From Candidatus Acidiferrum sp. (lineage in GTDB: Bacteria > Acidobacteriota > Terriglobia > Acidiferrales > UBA7541): a DNA stretch of 64,000 nucleotides. The translations under genes were made by a program, and so were the position numbers. Under the pieces are notes generated by a model. That model had not been told where the DNA came from and searched no databases. It saw nothing but the letters and a program-made list of their open reading frames with translations. The stretch is from positions 466 to 64,465 of the forward strand of contig DATFZY010000035.1 in the NCBI GenBank assembly GCA_035313865.1. The letters run 5' to 3'. Shown one piece after another: positions 35,428 to 44,707 of this stretch. The number at the start of each line of letters is the position of its first letter. Within the stretch, counting starts at the first letter, position 1.

Positions 35428-36435
35428 ATGCTGAAACGTAATTTGATTATGTGCGGCGGAGCGGCGGTGCTGGGTGTTGCGCTGATTGCGTTGCCCAGCC
35501 CTTCCGCGGTGGCACAAGATTCTGCGGCCGCAAAGGTGGCGCAAGTGGAAGCGAGCCGTGCGCAAGTGGCTGCCGCGCAGGCCGCATTTCAAGAGGCGCA
35601 ACAGGACCAGCGAAACCGCGTGTTGATTACGCCTGGGGCGGAGGTGGACTCTGACGGCCCGGTGGTGCTGTTTGGCGACGATGGCGCGAGCTGGCTGGGC
35701 GTGGAATCGCAGGAAGTTAACTCGGAGAAGGCCAAGGAACTGAAGCTGCCCGCGGAGCGCGGCGCCCTGCTGCAGCGAATCGTGCCGGACAGCCCGGCGG
35801 CAAAAGCCGGTTTGAAAGAAAATGATGTCATTACCGAAATAAACGGACAGCGAGTGGAAGGCGCTGCGCAATTTCGCCGCATGATTCACGAGATTCCCGC
35901 CGGACGGACGGTGCAATTCACGGTATGGCGGGACGGCCGCGCGCAAACGATTGCCGCGACGCTCGGCAAATCGGAAGATCGCGCGAGTGTCTGGTCCAAA
36001 ACTGCCCCGCGCGCATTTTCCTTCCAGCTTCCGAAGGTGGAAATGCCGGAAATGCCTGATGGACCTGGGATGGATTGGAATTTAGAGATGCTGCCTGGCG
36101 GGCGGCCGCGTCTGGGCATTGACGCCGAAGACCTGAGCGGACAATTCGGAGCCTATTTTGGCGCGCCGGACGGCGAAGGCGTGCTGGTCCGCGAAGTGAA
36201 TGCCGGATCCGCGGCGGACAAGGCCGGAGTGAAGAGCGGCGACGTCATTGTTTCGCTGAATGGCGATCGCATTCGTTCGCTCGGCGATCTGCGGGAGAAA
36301 CTTGCCGGAAAGCGGGAAGAAAAGACTGTGAAACTCGGTGTCTTGCGCAACAAGAGCGAGCAGTCGATTACCGTGGAATTGCCGCCGCTGCCTTCGAAAA
36401 CTCCGCGAGTTATATCGCGACGCACCAATATTTAA
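35428..36435 (+). CDS. Periplasmic tandem-PDZ protein without a protease domain
   Basis: Signal peptide; WLGV...SPAAKAGLK.NDVI and RLGI...SAADKAGVK.GDVI; no GNSGG trypsin motif. Confidence 0.85.
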   Translation: MLKRNLIMCGGAAVLGVALIALPSPSAVAQDSAAAKVAQVEASRAQVAAAQAAFQEAQQDQRNRVLITPGAEVDSDGPVVLFGDDGASWLGVESQEVNSEKAKELKLPAERGALLQRIVPDSPAAKAGLKENDVITEINGQRVEGAAQFRRMIHEIPAGRTVQFTVWRDGRAQTIAATLGKSEDRASVWSKTAPRAFSFQLPKVEMPEMPDGPGMDWNLEMLPGGRPRLGIDAEDLSGQFGAYFGAPDGEGVLVREVNAGSAADKAGVKSGDVIVSLNGDRIRSLGDLREKLAGKREEKTVKLGVLRNKSEQSITVELPPLPSKTPRVISRRTNI

Positions 36436-36449
36436 GAAAGCTTTGCGCA

Positions 36450-36487
36450 AGAAAGCCCGGACAAATTGTCCGGGCTTTCTCGTTTTT
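36450..36487. terminator. Intrinsic, likely bidirectional terminator
   Basis: AGAAAGCCCGGACA-AAT-TGTCCGGGCTTTCT followed by a T-run, between convergent operons. Confidence 0.8.
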
Positions 36488-36534: not shown

Positions 36535-37719
36535 TCAGGGCTTGCCGTCGCGGCCATATTTTCGCGCGAGACGAAATGGACGTCCGAGGGCATCGAGAAA
36601 CCAGTGGCGCTTGTTTTCTTCGCCTTCGACCCAGTCTTCCTCGGTGGGCGAAAAAGATAGCCGAAAAAGATAGCCGAGCCCGGAAAAACCGCCGCCGTAC
36701 ATGCCGATGCGAAACTTAGCGCGTTCAACAATTCCCGTCGGCGCCGTACCGGCTGCTGGAAGCCACCGAATAATCTGAGAAGACAGGCGGCCGACGGCGC
36801 GGTCCGATCGCACAGCCGCTGCGATTGCATCAGGTAGCGGAGCACCGAGCATATCGGCGGCCAATCGCAGGCCGACTTGTAACATGCGTTCCGCCCCAAC
36901 CTCTTCGGCGGCTGACTTCACGAGCGCCCAATCGAGTTGCTGCCGGGAGACGAAGGCGGCCACGTCGGCGATATAAACAAGGCGCTCCCAAAAATGCTTC
37001 GCTCCGTGAATACAAATCAGGATCAGTTCGTCTTCCGGCGAAAGCGCGGGAACCTCGTGCGCATCGAACTTTTCGCGCACTTGCCGGCGAAAGAGCGCTT
37101 CCAACGGAAGGGGTTTCGGATGATAACGGAAGGTAAGCTCGGTGTGGAATTCGATCAGGAGCTTCGTGGTGGGCTGCCGAAAATTGTATTCGCCGGGAAT
37201 TTTTTTAGCATGAATGGCGGTCAACGGGACGCTGGGGGCGTATCCGAGGCCAAGCATGAGTTCCGTGGAGCGCAGAATATCGTTGTCGCGCACGATCAAA
37301 TCCAGATCGCCGTATTGGCGCAAGCCTGGATCGCCGTAACTACGCACGGAAAGCACCGGCCCTTTAATCACCAGCGCCTCGATGCCGGAGGCGGCAAAGC
37401 GATCGAAGAGCCGGAACATCTCCGCGCTCAAATTCAGGGTGAAAAGGGTGTGATTGCGGCGCCAGACGCGCAGAGCATCGCGATTTTCCGGCGGAATGAC
37501 CGCTTCGTTGAAGTCAAACAGGCGGGCGACGGTTAACCCGAGGACACCGTGGTCTTCCGCGAATGCAATCAGTGATGGCCAGTCGAGACGAGCGCGGAGT
37601 TTTTCGGCAAGGCGCTGGCGGTCCGGTTGCGGCCTGGCGCACTCGAGCAGCAGCGTCCACTCCGCTTCAAGAACTTCCGCATCCTGTGGCAGTGTTTCCG
37701 TCAGAAAATCCCCCAGCAA
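36535..37719 (-). CDS. Nucleotidyltransferase (NTP_transf_5-like), lasso-cluster tailoring enzyme
   Basis: IKGP.L....Y.DPGLR..GDLDLIV, IEFH, CIHGAKH.W.RL...D motifs; last gene of the lasso operon. Confidence 0.85.
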   Translation of the reverse strand: MLGDFLTETLPQDAEVLEAEWTLLLECARPQPDRQRLAEKLRARLDWPSLIAFAEDHGVLGLTVARLFDFNEAVIPPENRDALRVWRRNHTLFTLNLSAEMFRLFDRFAASGIEALVIKGPVLSVRSYGDPGLRQYGDLDLIVRDNDILRSTELMLGLGYAPSVPLTAIHAKKIPGEYNFRQPTTKLLIEFHTELTFRYHPKPLPLEALFRRQVREKFDAHEVPALSPEDELILICIHGAKHFWERLVYIADVAAFVSRQQLDWALVKSAAEEVGAERMLQVGLRLAADMLGAPLPDAIAAAVRSDRAVGRLSSQIIRWLPAAGTAPTGIVERAKFRIGMYGGGFSGLGYLFRLSFSPTEEDWVEGEENKRHWFLDALGRPFRLARKYGRDGKP

Positions 37720-37756: not shown

Positions 37757-38899
37757 CTAGCGGGAAAATCTTTCGGCCAAAGCAGAAACGCGCCGGAAGG
37801 CATCTTCCGGGCGGCGAAAAACCTTTGGGAATTGTTCCGCGGCGGCTTGCGCGATTTCCTGCAAAGGCGCGATGCCGTCCATGGCCTGAAGGAGCCAGCG
37901 TTCCGCCAGACCCGCCTCCGTGAGGAGAGGAACGTAATCCGCCGCGCGGCGACGAAGAGTCTCGGACATGAATTGCGCGCCTTCAAAAGTGGACTGGCGA
38001 AAAACTCGTTCGCGTTGACCGTTATGAGCGGCGATCCTGGTATCCCAGCGCCAGATGTAGTCGCCGCCGACGGGATCGGCGTGCAAATCAACTTCAATCT
38101 CCTGCCCGGCCTCCAGAGCTACGGGTTCAAGCCAAGGAAGAAAACCCTGACCGTAGACGGTCCCCGCGGGTCCCGGTCCGGTCGAGAATCCGATGTTTTC
38201 AAAGAGCTTCGTTTCAAACCAGGCGCTCACTCCATGCCCAATCCCGCTGCGCGTTGCGCGGAATCGCATCTTTGCGGAAGCGCGGGTATTCAGGTGCGCC
38301 GTGTAATCCAGCGTGCACCAGTTTTGCGGATCCGTCAGGAGCTGCTCCTTTTTCGAGCGCAGTTTGTAAACACCATTCAGAAGGAGCGGAAGCGGAGCGG
38401 AAAGATCGATCTCGCTCCCCGGCTCCTTCCATGGCGAGGTGATGCGCTCGTAATAGTCAGGAGCTTCGACGATGGCAGCGTAGAGGGTGTCGCGCTCGGG
38501 AATCTGCGTTCCGCCCTCCTTCAAAAAGCGCACCCTGGCGTCCTCAATCGACGGCAGCGCGTCATCAAAGAGCGGCAAGGCTCCACGCACATCGGAAACA
38601 ACGACGTTCGCGCGTTCGGGCAGCTGGACTTGCCTGGAATCCTCGTGGATAAATTGGATGCGATCCGCAAAGCCATTGCTGGCGGCCAACTGCCGCGCGA
38701 GGTGAACGATGTCCCCGCCTTCGATCGCATAAACGCGCTTCGCACCGGCGCGGCAAGCCAGCAGCGCAAAGATTCCGGGACCGCAGCCGAGGTCGACGAC
38801 GACATCGCCGGGACGCACGGCGCGGCTGATGGCATCGGCGTACGCTCCAAAGCGCGCCTTGTCGGCGATCATGTCGCCAAATTCATTGAGAAGGTACAT
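37757..38899 (-). CDS. PRMT-fold class I SAM-dependent methyltransferase, lasso-cluster tailoring enzyme
   Basis: M..D..R..AY, VVDLGCGPGI, AGAKRVYAIE, LPE.A.VVVSD, RFLK.GG..IP, HG..AWF, STGP; collinear with eukaryotic PRMT cores. Confidence 0.8.
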   Translation of the reverse strand: MYLLNEFGDMIADKARFGAYADAISRAVRPGDVVVDLGCGPGIFALLACRAGAKRVYAIEGGDIVHLARQLAASNGFADRIQFIHEDSRQVQLPERANVVVSDVRGALPLFDDALPSIEDARVRFLKEGGTQIPERDTLYAAIVEAPDYYERITSPWKEPGSEIDLSAPLPLLLNGVYKLRSKKEQLLTDPQNWCTLDYTAHLNTRASAKMRFRATRSGIGHGVSAWFETKLFENIGFSTGPGPAGTVYGQGFLPWLEPVALEAGQEIEVDLHADPVGGDYIWRWDTRIAAHNGQRERVFRQSTFEGAQFMSETLRRRAADYVPLLTEAGLAERWLLQAMDGIAPLQEIAQAAAEQFPKVFRRPEDAFRRVSALAERFSR

Positions 38900-38900
38900 T

Positions 38901-39914
38901 TCAGCGGCCGGCCGCGGCGCCCAGGCTCACCTGGCTGGCCAGCAAACGGGTGGCATCGGCAAGAATCAGCTCGGAGAGAGCGCCGATCCGCGATGGATCG
39001 CTGTGAGGAACAATTCGCCGAACCGGAATCTGTGAAACCAGGCGAGAGAGCAGTTCGAATTCCGCCGCACGTTGCGCGCGGTCCAGAAGCCAATTCATAT
39101 ACGTATTCTGGACTAGTTCCAGAAGCACATCGCGACTGCTCACCTCTTCAATCCGCGGAGCATTCTCCATTTCTCGCGGACCAAGAATATAAACGGCTCC
39201 AAGAGGTTGCTTGCGGGATTCCAGGCTGGCTTTCACGCCATCCAACTGCAAATAACATTTGTCCCAGTTTGGCGCAATCCGCGGCAGTGCGTCCCGGTGT
39301 CCCATCAGCATCTCGACGGATTCGGGCCACAAACAAACGCGTGGATATCCCGCCTCGACGGCGAAACCTCCACCGGTTTCCTCGACCGCAGCAATATCCT
39401 CGCAAAGAACCGGCAATCCAAGCAGTCCCAACGCCGCCGCAGTCGTGGACTTTCCAGCTCCAGCCTCACCGGTCAGCAGAATAGCCTTGCCGTCCACGCA
39501 TAGCGCGCTGGCATGCAGCGCCGTGATTCCTCGCCGGCGCAAAATGAATCCCATGACAGGTCCGAGCAAATAGGTGGAAAGGTCCTGGATTGTTTGGCCG
39601 TCGCCAGGGATGCCCCAAATGGAGGTTGCCTCGCCGTTCACTACAAAGCGAGTCCCATCAGAATAGGCCAGTTGAAAAAATTTCCCAACTCCCAGAGAAG
39701 TAAGTACGAAGGCAGGGTCCTGCGTTTCCGGAGAGGCTGCAATACTTTGAAGAACCGCGCGTGGCAGCTCGAGCGCTTCTCGCACCCATAAAGGTTCGCG
39801 GCACAACTCCAGGCGAACGCCCGCGCGACACGAGCCGTCAATTTCCTCGTTCAATCCGGGAATTGGAGAATCGGAAGAGAGGTCCAGGCCGTAAGTACGA
39901 TAGCGGTAAGTCAC
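38901..39914 (-). CDS. HPr kinase-like (PadeK/ThcoK-type) peptide kinase
   Basis: YLLGPVMG..L..RG...LHAS, GEAGAGKST Walker A, L.EDI, P...LWP; immediately downstream of the precursor. Confidence 0.85.
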   Translation of the reverse strand: MTYRYRTYGLDLSSDSPIPGLNEEIDGSCRAGVRLELCREPLWVREALELPRAVLQSIAASPETQDPAFVLTSLGVGKFFQLAYSDGTRFVVNGEATSIWGIPGDGQTIQDLSTYLLGPVMGFILRRRGITALHASALCVDGKAILLTGEAGAGKSTTAAALGLLGLPVLCEDIAAVEETGGGFAVEAGYPRVCLWPESVEMLMGHRDALPRIAPNWDKCYLQLDGVKASLESRKQPLGAVYILGPREMENAPRIEEVSSRDVLLELVQNTYMNWLLDRAQRAAEFELLSRLVSQIPVRRIVPHSDPSRIGALSELILADATRLLASQVSLGAAAGR

Positions 39915-39957: not shown

Positions 39958-40110
39958 TTAGCCGGTCTTGCGCATGTTAATAGGCGTCTTCGCCCCGTCC
40001 AAAGTCCCCTTATTCGTCTTGGCCCGGGTCATCTCCGTTAAATTTCCATAGACAAGAAGTTTGGGTGCTCGGTAGGGCTTTTTCGCAGATGCCTCAGACT
40101 GCGGCCTCAT
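39958..40110 (-). CDS. Lasso peptide precursor (50 aa; not in the ORF track)
   Basis: MRPQSEASAKKPYRAPKLLVYGNLTEMTR-AKTNKGTLDGAKTPINMRKTG*: YxxPxL motif, conserved G, Thr at -2, core Asp9; ATG abuts the cyclase TGA, with GGGGGA upstream. Confidence 0.9.
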   Translation of the reverse strand: MRPQSEASAKKPYRAPKLLVYGNLTEMTRAKTNKGTLDGAKTPINMRKTG

Positions 40111-41982
40111 TCAGTTTCCCCCGATTCGACTGTACTGAATACTTTGTTCGTTTTCAACGCTTTTCAGCCAATAATCAAGAGCAATGGGCCGCAGGTCGGC
40201 CCACAATGCCAAACCTAAACCCCGGGCGGGGTGAGAAGTTGCGCTGAGCATTCTGCAGTTTACAAACATCCGCAGTCTCTCGCAAGCCCCGTCTTGCAGG
40301 GCCGGCTTCCAACTATTTTTTTCGGAATGGAGAAGGAGCGGGTCGCCTTGCAAAGGCGTCTTGCGGCGGGTGCGTATTTCCTCGGGCAATAGACCTTGCA
40401 TCGAGTCGCGAAGAAGTTCTTTATTCATACACCAGGGCACCGGGGGTACGCGTAGGAGGAAACGGATCAAACGTTGATCGTGCAAAGGAGCGCGCGTTTC
40501 CACCGGCACACCTGTCCAGCCCGAATCTTCGGGCTCATAGATGCTGGGCCAGTACGCGGTGGTCAACGAGGCATGCCCGGCGGGATGAAGCGGATGTTGC
40601 TCTTTGGCGGGCTGCTGCAACTCTCGCCAACGATCGCGCAGATGCCACTCCTGCTCAAAGGTCGGTTCCAGCCACGGAGGATAATCCACCGTTTCCTGCG
40701 CGCGGCCCATCCAGCGCCGCAAACGCGTTCGAAGCCCTGCGCGCAATGGTGGAAATCTGCCGTGACGGAGCATGTACCCACCGAACGACCGCGCCATTGT
40801 GCCCAGGTGGCCTCCCTGCAACAGCTGGACGAGATACGGCCAGGCGCGCCCGGTCAGAATGTCGTCGCCGCCGTCGCCAGTGAGCATCACGCGCCACTGC
40901 ATGGCTACCTGGCGGTAATGCTCGACGTGCAGTGCAAAAAACGGTTCAACACAAGGCTCCGGAGTGCTCAGCCCCAGCTCGTCCCATCCACCAAATGGCG
41001 GGCACGAAGCTCCCGAGAGGATCTCGATGGGAATGCCGAGGTGCTTCGCGGCCCGCGACGCGAGTGTGCCCTCCTCGTCCTCAAAAAGCGGAGTGTAATC
41101 CACGGTGTACGCACGCAGCGAATCCCGGACGCCTCGCGCGACCTGCACCTTGCCGGCGATCGCCGCGACGCTCGTGGAGTCCAGTCCTCCACTCATGAAA
41201 ATTCCCGCCGCGCCCTGCGGCAAGCGGTCCCGCACAGCTTCTTCCAGGTGTCCGCGAAAGGCCTCGATGTACTCTTCGCGCCGCCTCAATAAGAGCGGCT
41301 CTTCGATAGGCAGGCTCGTGTAACGGCGCACCTGCACTTCTCCATTCGAAAAGTGCAGAGCGTGGCCCGCCGTCAACCGGCGCACATCGCGATACGCAGT
41401 GCGTTCGGGATCAGAGCACCAGGATTGCAGCAGAAAGTCGCCGATAAAATATGGGTCGAGCTTCGCGGATACTTCTGGCGCAAGCCGCACGGTGTTGAGT
41501 GTGTTGCTGAAAATAAGCTGGCCGCCAACGTGTGCGTAAAAGAAGGGTCTGGCGCCCAGCAGACTGCGCGCGCACCACAACTCTTTCGCTTCCGAATCCC
41601 AAAGCGCAAACGAAAAATCTCCGATCAAAGTCTCAAAACTTTTTTCGGCCCACAGTCGCCACGCCCGCAGAATCAACTCTTCATCGGTGGTGTCCGCGGG
41701 AGCCTTTTCTCCATGCTGCTCGAGCCTTCGGCGCATCTCCTCGCGCCCGTCCAGCCGCACATCGCCCAGCAGCCAGACTCGGCCATCCAGGGAACACGGC
41801 TGTGCGGCGGCTTGCGGAGACGGACCGGTTCGCAGCAGAGTGAAACAGAATCCCGCCCCGGGGCGCATCCAGACCTGCGTCGCATCCGGCCCGCGAAATG
41901 CCAGGCTCTCTGCCATTCGCTCAATGATGCGGACATCGGGCGTTCCGCCGTCCGGGCGCACAATCCCCGCAAACCCGCTCAT
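40111..41982 (-). CDS. Lasso cyclase (asparagine synthetase-like isopeptide-bond-forming enzyme, C protein)
   Basis: N-terminal MSG instead of the catalytic MCG, SGGLDST PP-loop, LTGDGGD, R.P..D.R, K.LLR..M.GLLP..I..R.K. Confidence 0.92.
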   Translation of the reverse strand: MSGFAGIVRPDGGTPDVRIIERMAESLAFRGPDATQVWMRPGAGFCFTLLRTGPSPQAAAQPCSLDGRVWLLGDVRLDGREEMRRRLEQHGEKAPADTTDEELILRAWRLWAEKSFETLIGDFSFALWDSEAKELWCARSLLGARPFFYAHVGGQLIFSNTLNTVRLAPEVSAKLDPYFIGDFLLQSWCSDPERTAYRDVRRLTAGHALHFSNGEVQVRRYTSLPIEEPLLLRRREEYIEAFRGHLEEAVRDRLPQGAAGIFMSGGLDSTSVAAIAGKVQVARGVRDSLRAYTVDYTPLFEDEEGTLASRAAKHLGIPIEILSGASCPPFGGWDELGLSTPEPCVEPFFALHVEHYRQVAMQWRVMLTGDGGDDILTGRAWPYLVQLLQGGHLGTMARSFGGYMLRHGRFPPLRAGLRTRLRRWMGRAQETVDYPPWLEPTFEQEWHLRDRWRELQQPAKEQHPLHPAGHASLTTAYWPSIYEPEDSGWTGVPVETRAPLHDQRLIRFLLRVPPVPWCMNKELLRDSMQGLLPEEIRTRRKTPLQGDPLLLHSEKNSWKPALQDGACERLRMFVNCRMLSATSHPARGLGLALWADLRPIALDYWLKSVENEQSIQYSRIGGN

Positions 41983-42443
41983 CGCGGCCCCGGCGGCAGA
42001 GAGGACAGCGCCGCGTCAAACGCAGCATAATGCTCGTGGAGCGCTTCCGGCTCATTCAACGCAGTCCCCGCGCGCTCCACCCAGGCATGCGCCTCGAATT
42101 TTTCGGCCTCTTTGCGAACGCCAATGCGCAGTTCGCAAGCAATCCCCTGGCGCCCCAGCAGCCACCACAATGCAAGCGATTCTTCCAGGCAGGTGGGATG
42201 ACCACCACTGTGACGCACCGCGGCGCGCACCATGCGCGCCGTGCTTTCCGCAGCTGCGGCGGGCACTGAACTATCGGGCCGCTCCTTGGGCGGGGAAAGA
42301 AACCTTTGCAGGAAGGCCTGAGTCTTACGAAATCCGCGCAGGCGCAAACTCATGGAAATCAGGGGCAACAATGCCGCCGCACGCAGGAAAAGCCCGCGCG
42401 CCGGGCGCTCCAGCGCGCTAAACCGTCGAAGCCGTTCCCACAT
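41979..42443 (-). CDS. Lasso leader peptidase (B2, transglutaminase-like)
   Basis: TCL..SL...W.L...G...LRIGV...F.AHAWVE; real ATG at 42443 within ORF 41979..42614. Confidence 0.92.
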   Translation of the reverse strand: MWERLRRFSALERPARGLFLRAAALLPLISMSLRLRGFRKTQAFLQRFLSPPKERPDSSVPAAAAESTARMVRAAVRHSGGHPTCLEESLALWWLLGRQGIACELRIGVRKEAEKFEAHAWVERAGTALNEPEALHEHYAAFDAALSSLPPGPR

Positions 42444-42723
42444 CGGCAGGCTGAATCTGTAGCAATCCGTTTTCGACGAGCCGCCCCAGGAGTTCCGTGA
42501 GGTGCAACCGCAGCAGTTCGGACTCGACGTCGAACTCGTTCTGGAGCTCCTGATAGGCAGCGTCAATGCTCGGCGCAGCAGTGACCACCTGCCACATGCG
42601 CGTCCCGGTTTCATCCAGGCCGAAGTAACGCTCCGTCTCCAAATTCAAAAGCACGGATTCCCTATCGAGAAAACGCACCAGCACATGCGGCACCGTTCCA
42701 GCGCGATCTGCGAATGACACCAT
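42418..42723 (-). CDS. RiPP recognition element (PqqD-family, B1)
   Basis: ESVLLNL....YFGLDETG..MW...L..EFDV...L..L...GLL. Confidence 0.92.
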   Translation of the reverse strand: MVSFADRAGTVPHVLVRFLDRESVLLNLETERYFGLDETGTRMWQVVTAAPSIDAAYQELQNEFDVESELLRLHLTELLGRLVENGLLQIQPADVGTASTV

Positions 42724-43040: not shown

Positions 43041-43895
43041 TTGTCTTCGCGCCACAGACACGCTATAAGTTTTGTCGTGCCGGAAGCCGCGATTGCTGTT
43101 GCATCCCTCGAAAAATTGTTTCCGCCCGCGCGCAGCGGCTGGCGCGCTTTCTTGCAGCCATTTGAAAAACCGTCCGTGGTCGCGCTCGCCGGAATTTCCT
43201 TCGAGGTTCGCCCCGGCGAAGCGTTGGCGCTCTTGGGTGCAAACGGCGCGGGAAAATCGACCCTCCTCAAAATTCTCGCCACGCTGCTTCTTCCCACGCA
43301 TGGCCATGCGCAAATCGCCGGACACGATGCCGTTCTCGACCCGCGCGCCGTCCGCCGCCAGATCGGCTATCATGCCGGCAGTGACCTCGGCTTTTACGCG
43401 CGACTCACCGGCCGCCAAAATCTGCGCTTCTTCGGGCGCCTCAATCATCTTTCGGACGCCGCCTCTGCGCAGCGTATCGCGCTGCTCTCGGAACAGTTCC
43501 ATCTCGGAGAAGCACTCGACCGCCAGCTCCGCACGCTCTCCTCGGGAACGGTCCAGCGTCTGAGTCTCGCTCGCGCCCTGCTCCACCAACCGCACGTACT
43601 TCTGCTCGACGAACCCACTCGCAGCCTGGACGCCATCGCTGCCTCTGAATTTCGCCGCTTCCTCAAATCCGAAGTCCTCAGCCGCGGCGACACTTCCCTG
43701 CTCTTCGCTTCGCATACTCTGCCCGAAGTCGAGATGCTCGCCGACCGCGTCGCCGTGATTGATGCGGGACGTCTCGTCACCTGCGACACTCCCGCTGCCT
43801 TGAAGCGCACCACGAACGCTGCATCGCTAGAAGACGCCTTCATGCGCCTGACGGGTCGCTCCCCACATCTCACCGGAGAGGGAACCCCGGAATGA
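43041..43895 (+). CDS. ABC transporter ATP-binding protein (exporter type)
   Basis: GANGAGKST, LSSG..QR, LLLDEPT, ASH; start may be GTG 43077. Confidence 0.92.
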   Translation: MSSRHRHAISFVVPEAAIAVASLEKLFPPARSGWRAFLQPFEKPSVVALAGISFEVRPGEALALLGANGAGKSTLLKILATLLLPTHGHAQIAGHDAVLDPRAVRRQIGYHAGSDLGFYARLTGRQNLRFFGRLNHLSDAASAQRIALLSEQFHLGEALDRQLRTLSSGTVQRLSLARALLHQPHVLLLDEPTRSLDAIAASEFRRFLKSEVLSRGDTSLLFASHTLPEVEMLADRVAVIDAGRLVTCDTPAALKRTTNAASLEDAFMRLTGRSPHLTGEGTPE

Positions 43896-44707
43896 CGCGC
43901 AGCCTGCGCGAGTTGTGGGCTTTCTTCTGGCGCGACCTCTCCATCGCGCGCACCTACCGCACCGTCTTCGTGCTCGAAGCCCTCGAAGCGCTGTTCGGAG
44001 TGGCCATGTTTTTTTATGTCGCGCGCTTCGTGGACAGCCCGCAGCTCCGGAACGCGCTCCCGCAGGGCGGAGGCTACTTCGCTTTTTCCCTAATCGGCTT
44101 CGTCTTCCTCGATTATCTCAACGCCGCGATGGACACCTTCGACCGAAGCCTCGAAGAAGCCCGCGACTCCGGCACGCTCGAACATCTGCTGGTCACGCAG
44201 ACTTCTCTCCCCGTCATTCTGGCCGGCTCAGCAATCTATCCTTTCGCAGTGACAACGCTGCGCATAGCCGTCTACGTCGCCTGGGGCGCACTGTTCTTCG
44301 GGTTTCCGCTGCGCGGTGCAAACTGGCTCGCCGTAGCCGCGGTGCTCCTCGCCACTCTGCTCGCTTTTTCCGGACTGGGAATTCTCTCCGCAAGCTATCT
44401 CCTGCTCTTCAAGCGCGGCAATCCCGCGAAGTGGTTCCTCCTCGGCGTTTCCAGCGTTGCCGGCGGCATGCTGTTTCCCATCAGCGTGCTTCCCGATTGG
44501 CTTCAGATAGTGGCCCGGTTGAATCCTGTCACTTACGCGCTAGACGCTATGCGCGCCGCTCTTCTCGGCGGCGCGGATGTGCAAGCCGTCTGGCGCCCGC
44601 TGATCGTCCTTCTCATTTTCAGCGCAGTCCTTCTGCCCCTTTCCATGGCGGTATTCTCCTGGGCGCTTCGCCGCACCAAAACCACGGGAACTCTAATGCA
44701 CCGCTAG
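43892..44707 (+). CDS. ABC-2 type permease
   Basis: GTLE.LL, FPISVLP.WLQ..A..NP.TY..D..R; about 6 TM helices; ATGA overlap. Confidence 0.9.
   Translation: MTRSLRELWAFFWRDLSIARTYRTVFVLEALEALFGVAMFFYVARFVDSPQLRNALPQGGGYFAFSLIGFVFLDYLNAAMDTFDRSLEEARDSGTLEHLLVTQTSLPVILAGSAIYPFAVTTLRIAVYVAWGALFFGFPLRGANWLAVAAVLLATLLAFSGLGILSASYLLLFKRGNPAKWFLLGVSSVAGGMLFPISVLPDWLQIVARLNPVTYALDAMRAALLGGADVQAVWRPLIVLLIFSAVLLPLSMAVFSWALRRTKTTGTLMHR

Follow-up and report, generated by a model that had tools for sequence, protein, structure and literature searches.

Characterized lasso peptide kinases phosphorylate the linear precursor, either at a C-terminal Ser, as for paeninodin, ThcoA, SyanA, and pseudomycoidin, or at Ser3, as for BsfA (PMC10368454, PMC6993621, PMC9266682). 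The kinase of the bsf cluster is assisted by the B1 protein (PMC10368454), and in pseudomycoidin biosynthesis PsmN places a hexose on the phosphate, the bulky C-terminal groups being proposed to act as a lock (PMC6993621). The leader motif YxxPxL at positions −17 to −12 has been described as general, and cleavage by B2 has been validated in vitro for the bsf cluster, which bears both a kinase and a nucleotidyltransferase (PMC10368454). According to reviews, natural lasso rings have 7 to 9 residues (PMC9266682). Lariocidin is a Ser1-Asp8 lasso with a charge of about +7 in 17 to 18 residues, and its cluster encodes a GNAT for self-resistance along with a clostripain-type peptidase; lrc-like clusters have been reported in Proteobacteria, Bacillota, and Actinomycetota (PMC11451635, PMC13352647).

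Here, we analyzed a stretch of 64,000 nucleotides (the window) from a Candidatus Acidiferrum sp. contig (DATFZY010000035.1, assembly GCA_035313865.1), in which a first-pass annotation had proposed an unannotated 50-residue lasso precursor with a strongly cationic core. The genes at this locus form an operon on the minus strand in the order B1-B2-C-A-kinase-MT-NT, with an ABC-2 exporter transcribed divergently:

36450 to 36480, no strand assigned: palindromic hairpin with a 14-bp perfect stem, downstream end of the operon (consensus match only)
36535 to 37719, minus strand: NT, an NTP_transf_5 nucleotidyltransferase of 394 aa (PF14907, E = 3e-49; D138-x-D140 invariant)
37757 to 38899, minus strand: MT, a PRMT-fold methyltransferase of 380 aa (PRMT6/PRMT1, E = 2e-23; PRMT_C, 32 bits against a cut-off of 27)
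38901 to 39914, minus strand: K, an HprK-related peptide kinase of 337 aa (TIGR04352, E = 4e-10, under the cut-off; P-loop match to HPr kinase)
39958 to 40110, minus strand: precursor gene A (P0001), 50 codons plus TAA (translation, homologue conservation, and third-position-biased substitution)
40111 to 41982, minus strand: lasso cyclase C, 623 aa (Asn_synthase, E = 9e-30; NF033535 lasso cyclase, 269 bits, under its cut-off)
41979 to 42443, minus strand: leader peptidase B2 (Transglut_core3, E = 8e-22; NF033537, 86 bits; Cys142 and His176 invariant)
42418 to 42723, minus strand: B1, a PqqD-type leader-recognition protein of 101 aa (PqqD, E = 9e-14; 90 to 95% identical in close loci)
43041 to 44707, plus strand: divergent ABC-2 exporter (ATPase at 43041 to 43895 and permease at 43892 to 44707, from domain searches)

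The first-pass reading of a lasso precursor agrees with this arrangement: gene A comes immediately after the genes for B1 (PqqD), B2 (Transglut_core3), and C (Asn_synthase), and the leader has the canonical spacing. An HprK-like kinase with an intact catalytic motif accompanies them. We consider it probable that gene A encodes the precursor for a lasso peptide of class II type, produced by the B1-B2-C-A-K-MT-NT operon, with the tailoring and the Ala1-Asp9 ring proposed below, the chemical steps being ones that we infer from sequence. At a minimum, the product would be an exported, modified lasso peptide.

The translation in the first-pass annotation, which had not given the strand, is identical to that of the minus-strand ORF at 39958 to 40110, and its residue counts all hold (Y13-x-x-P16-x-L18, G22, and T28 in the leader; four Lys, one Arg, and Asp9 as the sole acid in the core). 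ORFs are plentiful in the GC-rich DNA here, with 129 of at least 40 aa in 15 kb. Gene A and a 43-nt spacer exactly fill the 196-nt gap between the cyclase and kinase genes. The cyclase TGA abuts the gene A ATG, and the same junction is kept in ten related loci. Gene A is preceded by a ribosome-binding site:

40117 to 40122, minus strand: Shine-Dalgarno sequence GGGGGA, 6 nt 5′ of the gene A ATG, inside the 3′ end of gene C

In the ten loci sharing the TGA-ATG junction, this sequence reads GGGGGA or GAGGGA. A comparison of the leader with ten orthologues gave 61 synonymous versus 32 nonsynonymous codon changes, with 69 of 107 base differences at third positions, and this codon-position bias indicates that the leader is under purifying selection. 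The precursor matches the NCBIfam model NF033528 ("lasso peptide") at an E value of 3e-6 and 27.1 bits (cut-off, 33) and has no Pfam match; since the NF033528 score is under the cut-off, no annotation pipeline or curated model would name the precursor. The exact protein is nonetheless found on 11 contigs, public gene callers predicting the ORF, and homologues, where labelled, are listed as "hypothetical protein."

The first-pass annotation had also held that a lack of both conservation and expression would speak against its reading. A word-indexed search returned 57 other homologous clusters (58 including the window's own) of 49 to 52 residues and 61 to 84% identity, and a profile search of 1.84 billion representative proteins returned 1044 at E ≤ 1e-3; the precursor is thus conserved. 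The same cluster, with the same gene order, is present in 14 species-level genomes, nearly all of them labelled as Acidobacteriota, Candidatus Acidoferrum, or Acidoferrales metagenome-assembled genomes (MAGs). The source genome, a 4.4-Mb MAG that is 83% complete, has one copy of the precursor. Members of the family occur in 165 of the 301 sampled genomes of the window's order and in 65 of 101 in its genus. With 165 of 301 genomes, more than half, the precursor family probably ranks with the most common RiPPs in a soil lineage that is itself dominant. We found no characterized member of it in the searchable literature.

Together, these observations support the ORF as a genuine lasso precursor of an uncultured soil Acidobacteriota bacterium and not a chance ORF. 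That it is a chance ORF, or a decayed and unexpressed remnant, would fit the subthreshold NCBIfam match and the lack of an RNA contig over gene A (see below). We give this reading almost no credence: it is opposed by the conservation, synteny, Shine-Dalgarno sequence, coupling to the cyclase gene, and codon-position bias, by the catalytic residues that are intact in all partner enzymes, and by RNA-library contigs at 100% identity on three other operon genes.

Those contigs come from one soil metatranscriptome and lie on K (39263 to 39491), C (41023 to 41181), and B1/B2 (42379 to 42657), while none in the same data set lies over gene A. As these are assembled contigs of unknown strand, with DNA carry-over possible, they count neither for nor against transcription of gene A. 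At most, the contigs on K, C, and B1/B2 hint at possible transcription of the operon. The hairpin at 36450 to 36480 separates the NT gene from a convergent PDZ-protein gene (35428 to 36435) and, by its consensus match, is likely a bidirectional terminator at the end of the operon. In a scan for regulatory signals, promoter-like and terminator-like matches were not above those in shuffled sequences. One promoter-like element, TTGAAA-17-TACAGT, lies at 40129 to 40157 on the minus strand, within the last part of the cyclase coding region and a short way 5′ of the gene A ATG; it is not above chance, and its TACAGT is kept in most related loci but lies in coding sequence. Folding of the spacer between A and K was no better than that of shuffles (z = 0.01), and we therefore claim no attenuator.

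The window DNA is also found in many soil metagenomes from several studies. Other soil metagenomes contain strain variants: two runs show a 1-nt deletion at window position 40115, in the last cyclase codons and 5 nt from the gene A ATG, and one run shows a 6-nt deletion at 40204.

Some of the related loci deviate from the common pattern. Two cluster-bearing records, L006 and L012, are labelled "Betaproteobacteria bacterium" and "Candidatus Dormiibacterota," respectively; mislabelled or mis-binned contigs seem a more likely explanation for these odd phylum labels than transfer. L006 is among the loci nearest to the window, with a cyclase that is 79% identical and an NT that is 85% identical. 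The L011 precursor (L011:10001-10174) matches the family to about residue 37 and then continues as an unrelated 57-residue reading, which looks like a frameshift, arising from either a pseudogene or a long-read assembly error. The kinase and methyltransferase of L009 align poorly (54% and 47% identity, respectively).

The partner enzymes were examined for their boundaries and catalytic residues. The B2 ORF is open to 42614, with 57 extra codons that reach into B1 in another frame. Because the B2 domain begins at about residue 75 and the alignment with a distant orthologue starts only at residue 60, translation probably initiates at Met58 (42443), which leaves a 26-nt overlap with B1. In the kinase, H134, G149, G154, K155, S156, E172, and D173 are conserved at the spacing of the BsfK motif, with Glu172 replacing the first Asp. 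The gene 3′ of A is a kinase homologue in every locus that is long enough, and this holds even where the cyclase is only 34 to 50% identical to the window's; the gene order C-A-K is likewise retained in distant family members. The ABC-2 exporter is syntenic in every locus reaching far enough upstream.

To parse the precursor, we divided it as follows:

40024 to 40110, minus strand: leader, residues 1 to 29, with YRAPKL at 40057 to 40074, Gly22, and Thr28 (position −2) at 40027 to 40029; residues 10 to 28 nearly invariant
39961 to 40023, minus strand: predicted core, residues 30 to 50 (predicted boundary), with Ala1 at 40021 to 40023, the putative acceptor Asp9 at 39997 to 39999, and Thr20 at 39964 to 39966

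A cut after residue 29 puts Y13, P16, and L18 at −17, −14, and −12 and T28 at −2. The corresponding Thr, 15 residues after the Tyr (Y+15), is invariant in all 148 superfamily representatives, and the residue at Y+17 is Ala in 54, Thr in 36, Ser in 30, Gly in 10, and Asn in 7 of them, with others in the remainder. When the superfamily is cut at the canonical site, the most frequent ring size is 9 residues (85 of 148), and the most frequent class combines such a ring with Ala1 (29 of 148). The predicted core (P0001:30-50) has 21 residues, with a small first residue (Ala1) and an acid within positions 7 to 9 (Asp9); Thr is found at positions 3, 7, 13, and 20, and Ser, Cys, and aromatic residues are absent. 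The first-pass annotation had predicted an Ala1-Asp9 ring with a 12-residue tail, and this is the best parse because of the canonical Tyr−17/Pro−14/Leu−12/Thr−2 leader spacing; it also falls in the commonest superfamily class. We hold it to be the likely structure for this peptide, with a cut two residues later as its rival.

A later cut by B2, after Ala30-Lys31, would produce a 19-residue core with a 7-residue Thr1-Asp7 ring and would bring the rings of the family to 7 or 8 residues. Among 68 close homologues, it gives ring sizes of 8 (46 sequences) and 7 (22 sequences), all of them inside the known range of 7 to 9. The first residue is then Ala in 25, Ser in 19, Gly in 19, and Thr in 5, so that Gly, Ala, or Ser comes first in 63 of the 68, and Gly is found at Y+19 in 78 of the 148 superfamily representatives. 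On the other hand, this cut needs a Tyr−19 spacing, which we did not find reported in the literature, and leaves the invariant Thr (148/148) at −4, where it has no known role, while position −2 becomes Ala, Thr, Ser, Gly, Asn, Lys, Val, or Met. Of the 148 superfamily representatives, 6 would then begin with Pro and 3 with Asp, and 7 would have an impossible 6-residue ring; for the window's own peptide, this cut requires Ala at −2 and Thr1. The later cut seems unlikely to us. The two parses differ by 199 Da in computed monoisotopic mass (2183.184 Da for the dehydrated Ala1-Asp9 form versus 1984.052 Da for Thr1-Asp7), to which each phosphate would add 79.966, each hexose 162.053, and each methyl group 14.016.

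The canonical cut has its own consequence for the family. Applied to the 68 close homologues, it gives 10-residue rings in 46 and Thr1 in 43, and 53 of the 148 superfamily representatives would likewise have 10-residue rings; the only 10-residue lasso ring that we found in the literature is that of an engineered fusilassin variant. If the canonical cut applies family-wide, these peptides would be the first natural lassos with 10-residue (in a few cases, 11-residue) rings and Thr1. Their conserved [K/R]-Thr motif would bear a new combination of marks, with phospho-Thr, perhaps glycosylated, beside a Lys or Arg N-methylated by the remodelled PRMT-fold enzyme, and the marks would jointly serve as the lower plug. 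This family-wide extension is a tentative suggestion that we find somewhat doubtful. If it is true, the window's peptide would be the 9-residue-ring form, with its plugs in a tail that lacks aromatics. Characterizing the family would put to the test whether natural lasso rings can exceed nine residues.

Conservation within the core is limited to a few positions. Asp38-Gly39 and Thr49 are its only invariant residues in the close family (58/58), Arg47 is conserved in at least 90%, and the Met-Arg-Lys just ahead of Thr20 is nearly invariant. Across the superfamily, Thr is found among the last three residues in 122 of 148 representatives, preceded by Lys or Arg in 107 of 142. Given the invariance of Thr49 in the close family and the near-C-terminal Thr across the superfamily, the kinase acceptor is probably the penultimate residue, Thr49 (core Thr20). 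The conserved residue here is a penultimate Thr and not a C-terminal Ser of the paeninodin/pseudomycoidin type, and a work-up would establish a Thr close to the C terminus as a new acceptor rule for lasso kinases. We also considered Thr3, by likeness to Bsf, as the kinase site; since position 3 is not conserved in the family, we keep it only as a minor alternative.

By its profile matches, MT is a true PRMT homologue. All of 13 sequences compared have Asp103, and for the second conserved loop acid 11 of the 13 have Asp113, as against 2 with Asp112. Conservation extends to D36, G38, and G40 of the SAM motif and to Tyr249, and the THW loop reads Thr-Val-Tyr. Both PRMT loop Glu residues are replaced by Asp. 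The PRMT-fold homology, with Asp for both loop Glu residues, suggests N-methylation of Lys or Arg. The last ~67 residues of MT have only a weak PqqD match, under the cut-off (E = 0.086; 13.6 bits).

Of the 14 loci, the two that are most distant (L013 and L014) have no MT but retain the kinase and NT. The precursors of these two loci have a Phe before the conserved Thr (ending in R-F-T-G-R and H-F-T-G-G) instead of Lys or Met. A distant cluster, L017 (L017:7720-8174), has MT and two tandem precursors (P0209 and P0123) with Arg-free cores ending in Lys-Thr; this cluster adjoins glycosyltransferase and carbamoyltransferase genes. The two Arg-free cores in an MT-bearing cluster weaken the case for Arg18 as the methyl acceptor, because the Lys before the conserved Thr is then the only shared basic residue, if MT acts on the core. 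We therefore lean, weakly, toward Lys19 over Arg18. Our literature searches on PRMT, Acidobacteriota, and phosphothreonine found no paper tying a PRMT-fold enzyme to lasso peptides, and a functional work-up would, for the first time, assign a bacterial enzyme of the PRMT fold a role in tailoring peptides.

These features can be arranged into a putative pathway. Translation of gene A would be coupled to the end of the cyclase gene, and B1 would bind the leader via Y13, P16, and L18. The HprK-like kinase would then phosphorylate the still-linear precursor, most probably at Thr49 (core Thr20), after which the NTP_transf_5 enzyme may decorate the phosphate, with a hexose by analogy with PsmN. The PRMT-fold enzyme might N-methylate Lys19 or, less likely, Arg18 in the C-terminal R-K-T motif, although its substrate is a guess. 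B2 would cleave after Thr28-Arg29, and C would join the Ala1 amine to the Asp9 side chain to form the 9-residue ring. The 12-residue tail would be held by Met17, Arg18, and Lys19 together with the modified Thr20, and the ABC-2 pump would export the product.

The threading step in this scheme has an alternative. The predicted core has no Phe, Trp, Tyr, or His, ends in Arg-Lys-Thr-Gly, and has 12 residues beyond Asp9. With a tail devoid of an aromatic plug, the product could be branched-cyclic and unthreaded, or it could thread only with the modifications added by the kinase and NT. The nearly invariant Met-Arg-Lys directly ahead of Thr20 counts against this possibility. Arg and Lys may also have enough bulk to plug the ring, going by other lassos with 9-residue rings. 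Pseudomycoidin made without PsmK and PsmN has, however, been reported as nonthreaded, and its hexose-phosphate has been proposed as the lock (PMC6993621). We regard an unthreaded or modification-dependent product as improbable and favor a threaded Ala1-Asp9 lasso.

The first-pass annotation had further likened the core to the cationic triculamin/lariocidin-type antibacterial lassos, with RNA or membrane as a conceivable polyanionic target. The predicted core has a net charge of +4 over 21 residues (five basic residues and one C-terminal carboxylate), and no acid is left once the ring is closed. The charge would drop to roughly +2 to +3 if the core were phosphorylated or phospho-glycosylated. 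In the close family, the number of Lys and Arg minus that of Asp and Glu lies between +1 and +7 (mode, +3); in the superfamily, it spans −1 to +7 (modes, 0 and +1). This wide spread indicates that high positive charge is not a conserved property of the scaffold. The idea of a polyanionic target finds no support, and the kinase would add negative charge, which the original charge argument had omitted.

A lariocidin/triculamin-like polycationic antibiotic, which would enter cells by its charge and bind rRNA or another polyanion, is in our view very unlikely. The similarities consist of a Lys/Arg-rich lasso core, a Gly beside the ring Asp, and an ABC exporter (PMC11451635, PMC12070363), the cores being likened by description and not by sequence. 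In support of such a product, the core is at +4 before tailoring, a Gly comes after its Asp in the manner of the Asp/Gly pattern that is conserved among lariocidin relatives, and the cluster has a dedicated exporter. However, lariocidin and triculamin have a Ser1-Asp8 ring and about twice the charge density, and a GNAT serves for self-resistance; here, the predicted ring has 9 residues (or 7 with the later cut), and no GNAT was found among the nine cluster genes scanned. Lariocidin also has a clostripain-type peptidase and triculamin has no B proteins, whereas the window cluster has split B1/B2; the reported relatives come from other phyla. The lariocidin and triculamin clusters lack the kinase, NT, and PRMT-like enzyme, all three of which are present here, and phosphorylation would take away one to two charges from a core whose charge varies across both the close family and the superfamily. 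The resemblance to lariocidin is thus loose, and any value as an antibiotic lead is speculative.

The closest similarities are to clusters with peptide kinases. The clusters of pseudomycoidin (psmCAKB1B2ND of Bacillus pseudomycoides; PMC6993621) and paeninodin (Paenibacillus dendritiformis) likewise have split B1/B2, C, and an HprK-like kinase beside A. The psm cluster includes an "uncharacterised NTP transferase" gene, PsmN being comparable to NT at the level of description, and pseudomycoidin, like the peptide predicted here, starts with Ala1 and closes a 9-residue ring (Ala1-Glu9). Modification at the end of the C-terminal tail, with a phosphate added while the precursor is still linear, would be a common feature as well. 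The pseudomycoidin and paeninodin precursors, however, end in the phosphorylated Ser, whereas the window's precursor has a C-terminal Gly and a penultimate Thr in a [K/R]-Thr motif, and its leader has the canonical Tyr−17 spacing. They also have no counterpart of the PRMT-fold methyltransferase, and the window differs in having a two-gene ABC-2-type exporter and a host in Acidobacteriota rather than Bacillota.

The bsf cluster of Bradymonas sediminis FA350 (BsfA/B1/B2/C/D/K/N; PMC10368454) is also a Gram-negative cluster with a kinase and a nucleotidyltransferase. It shares YxxPxL at −17 to −12, with in vitro cleavage shown for bsf, and the kinase motif spacing of H, G, G, G, K, S, D, and D, which was mutationally tested in BsfK. 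BsfA differs in having Ile at −2, a Gly1-Asp8 ring, a C-terminal Asp, and a phospho-Ser3; the window's precursor has Thr at −2, an Ala1-Asp9 ring as predicted, and a Thr at position 3 that is not conserved in the family. The methyltransferase is absent from bsf. SAM-dependent methyltransferases are found in the clusters of the lassomycin-type and PIMT-type methylated lassos (StspM/LasF and TceM/LihM; PMC9266682), but these known lasso methyltransferases are O-methyltransferases acting on the C-terminal carboxylate or Asp6, and MT is a PRMT-fold homologue. As far as our literature searches showed, MT belongs to a class of enzyme that is new to lasso peptide biosynthesis. By analogy, the window cluster would work like psm, pade, and bsf, with a leader-guided kinase, a nucleotidyltransferase, and a split B protein, but it departs from their acceptor rule.
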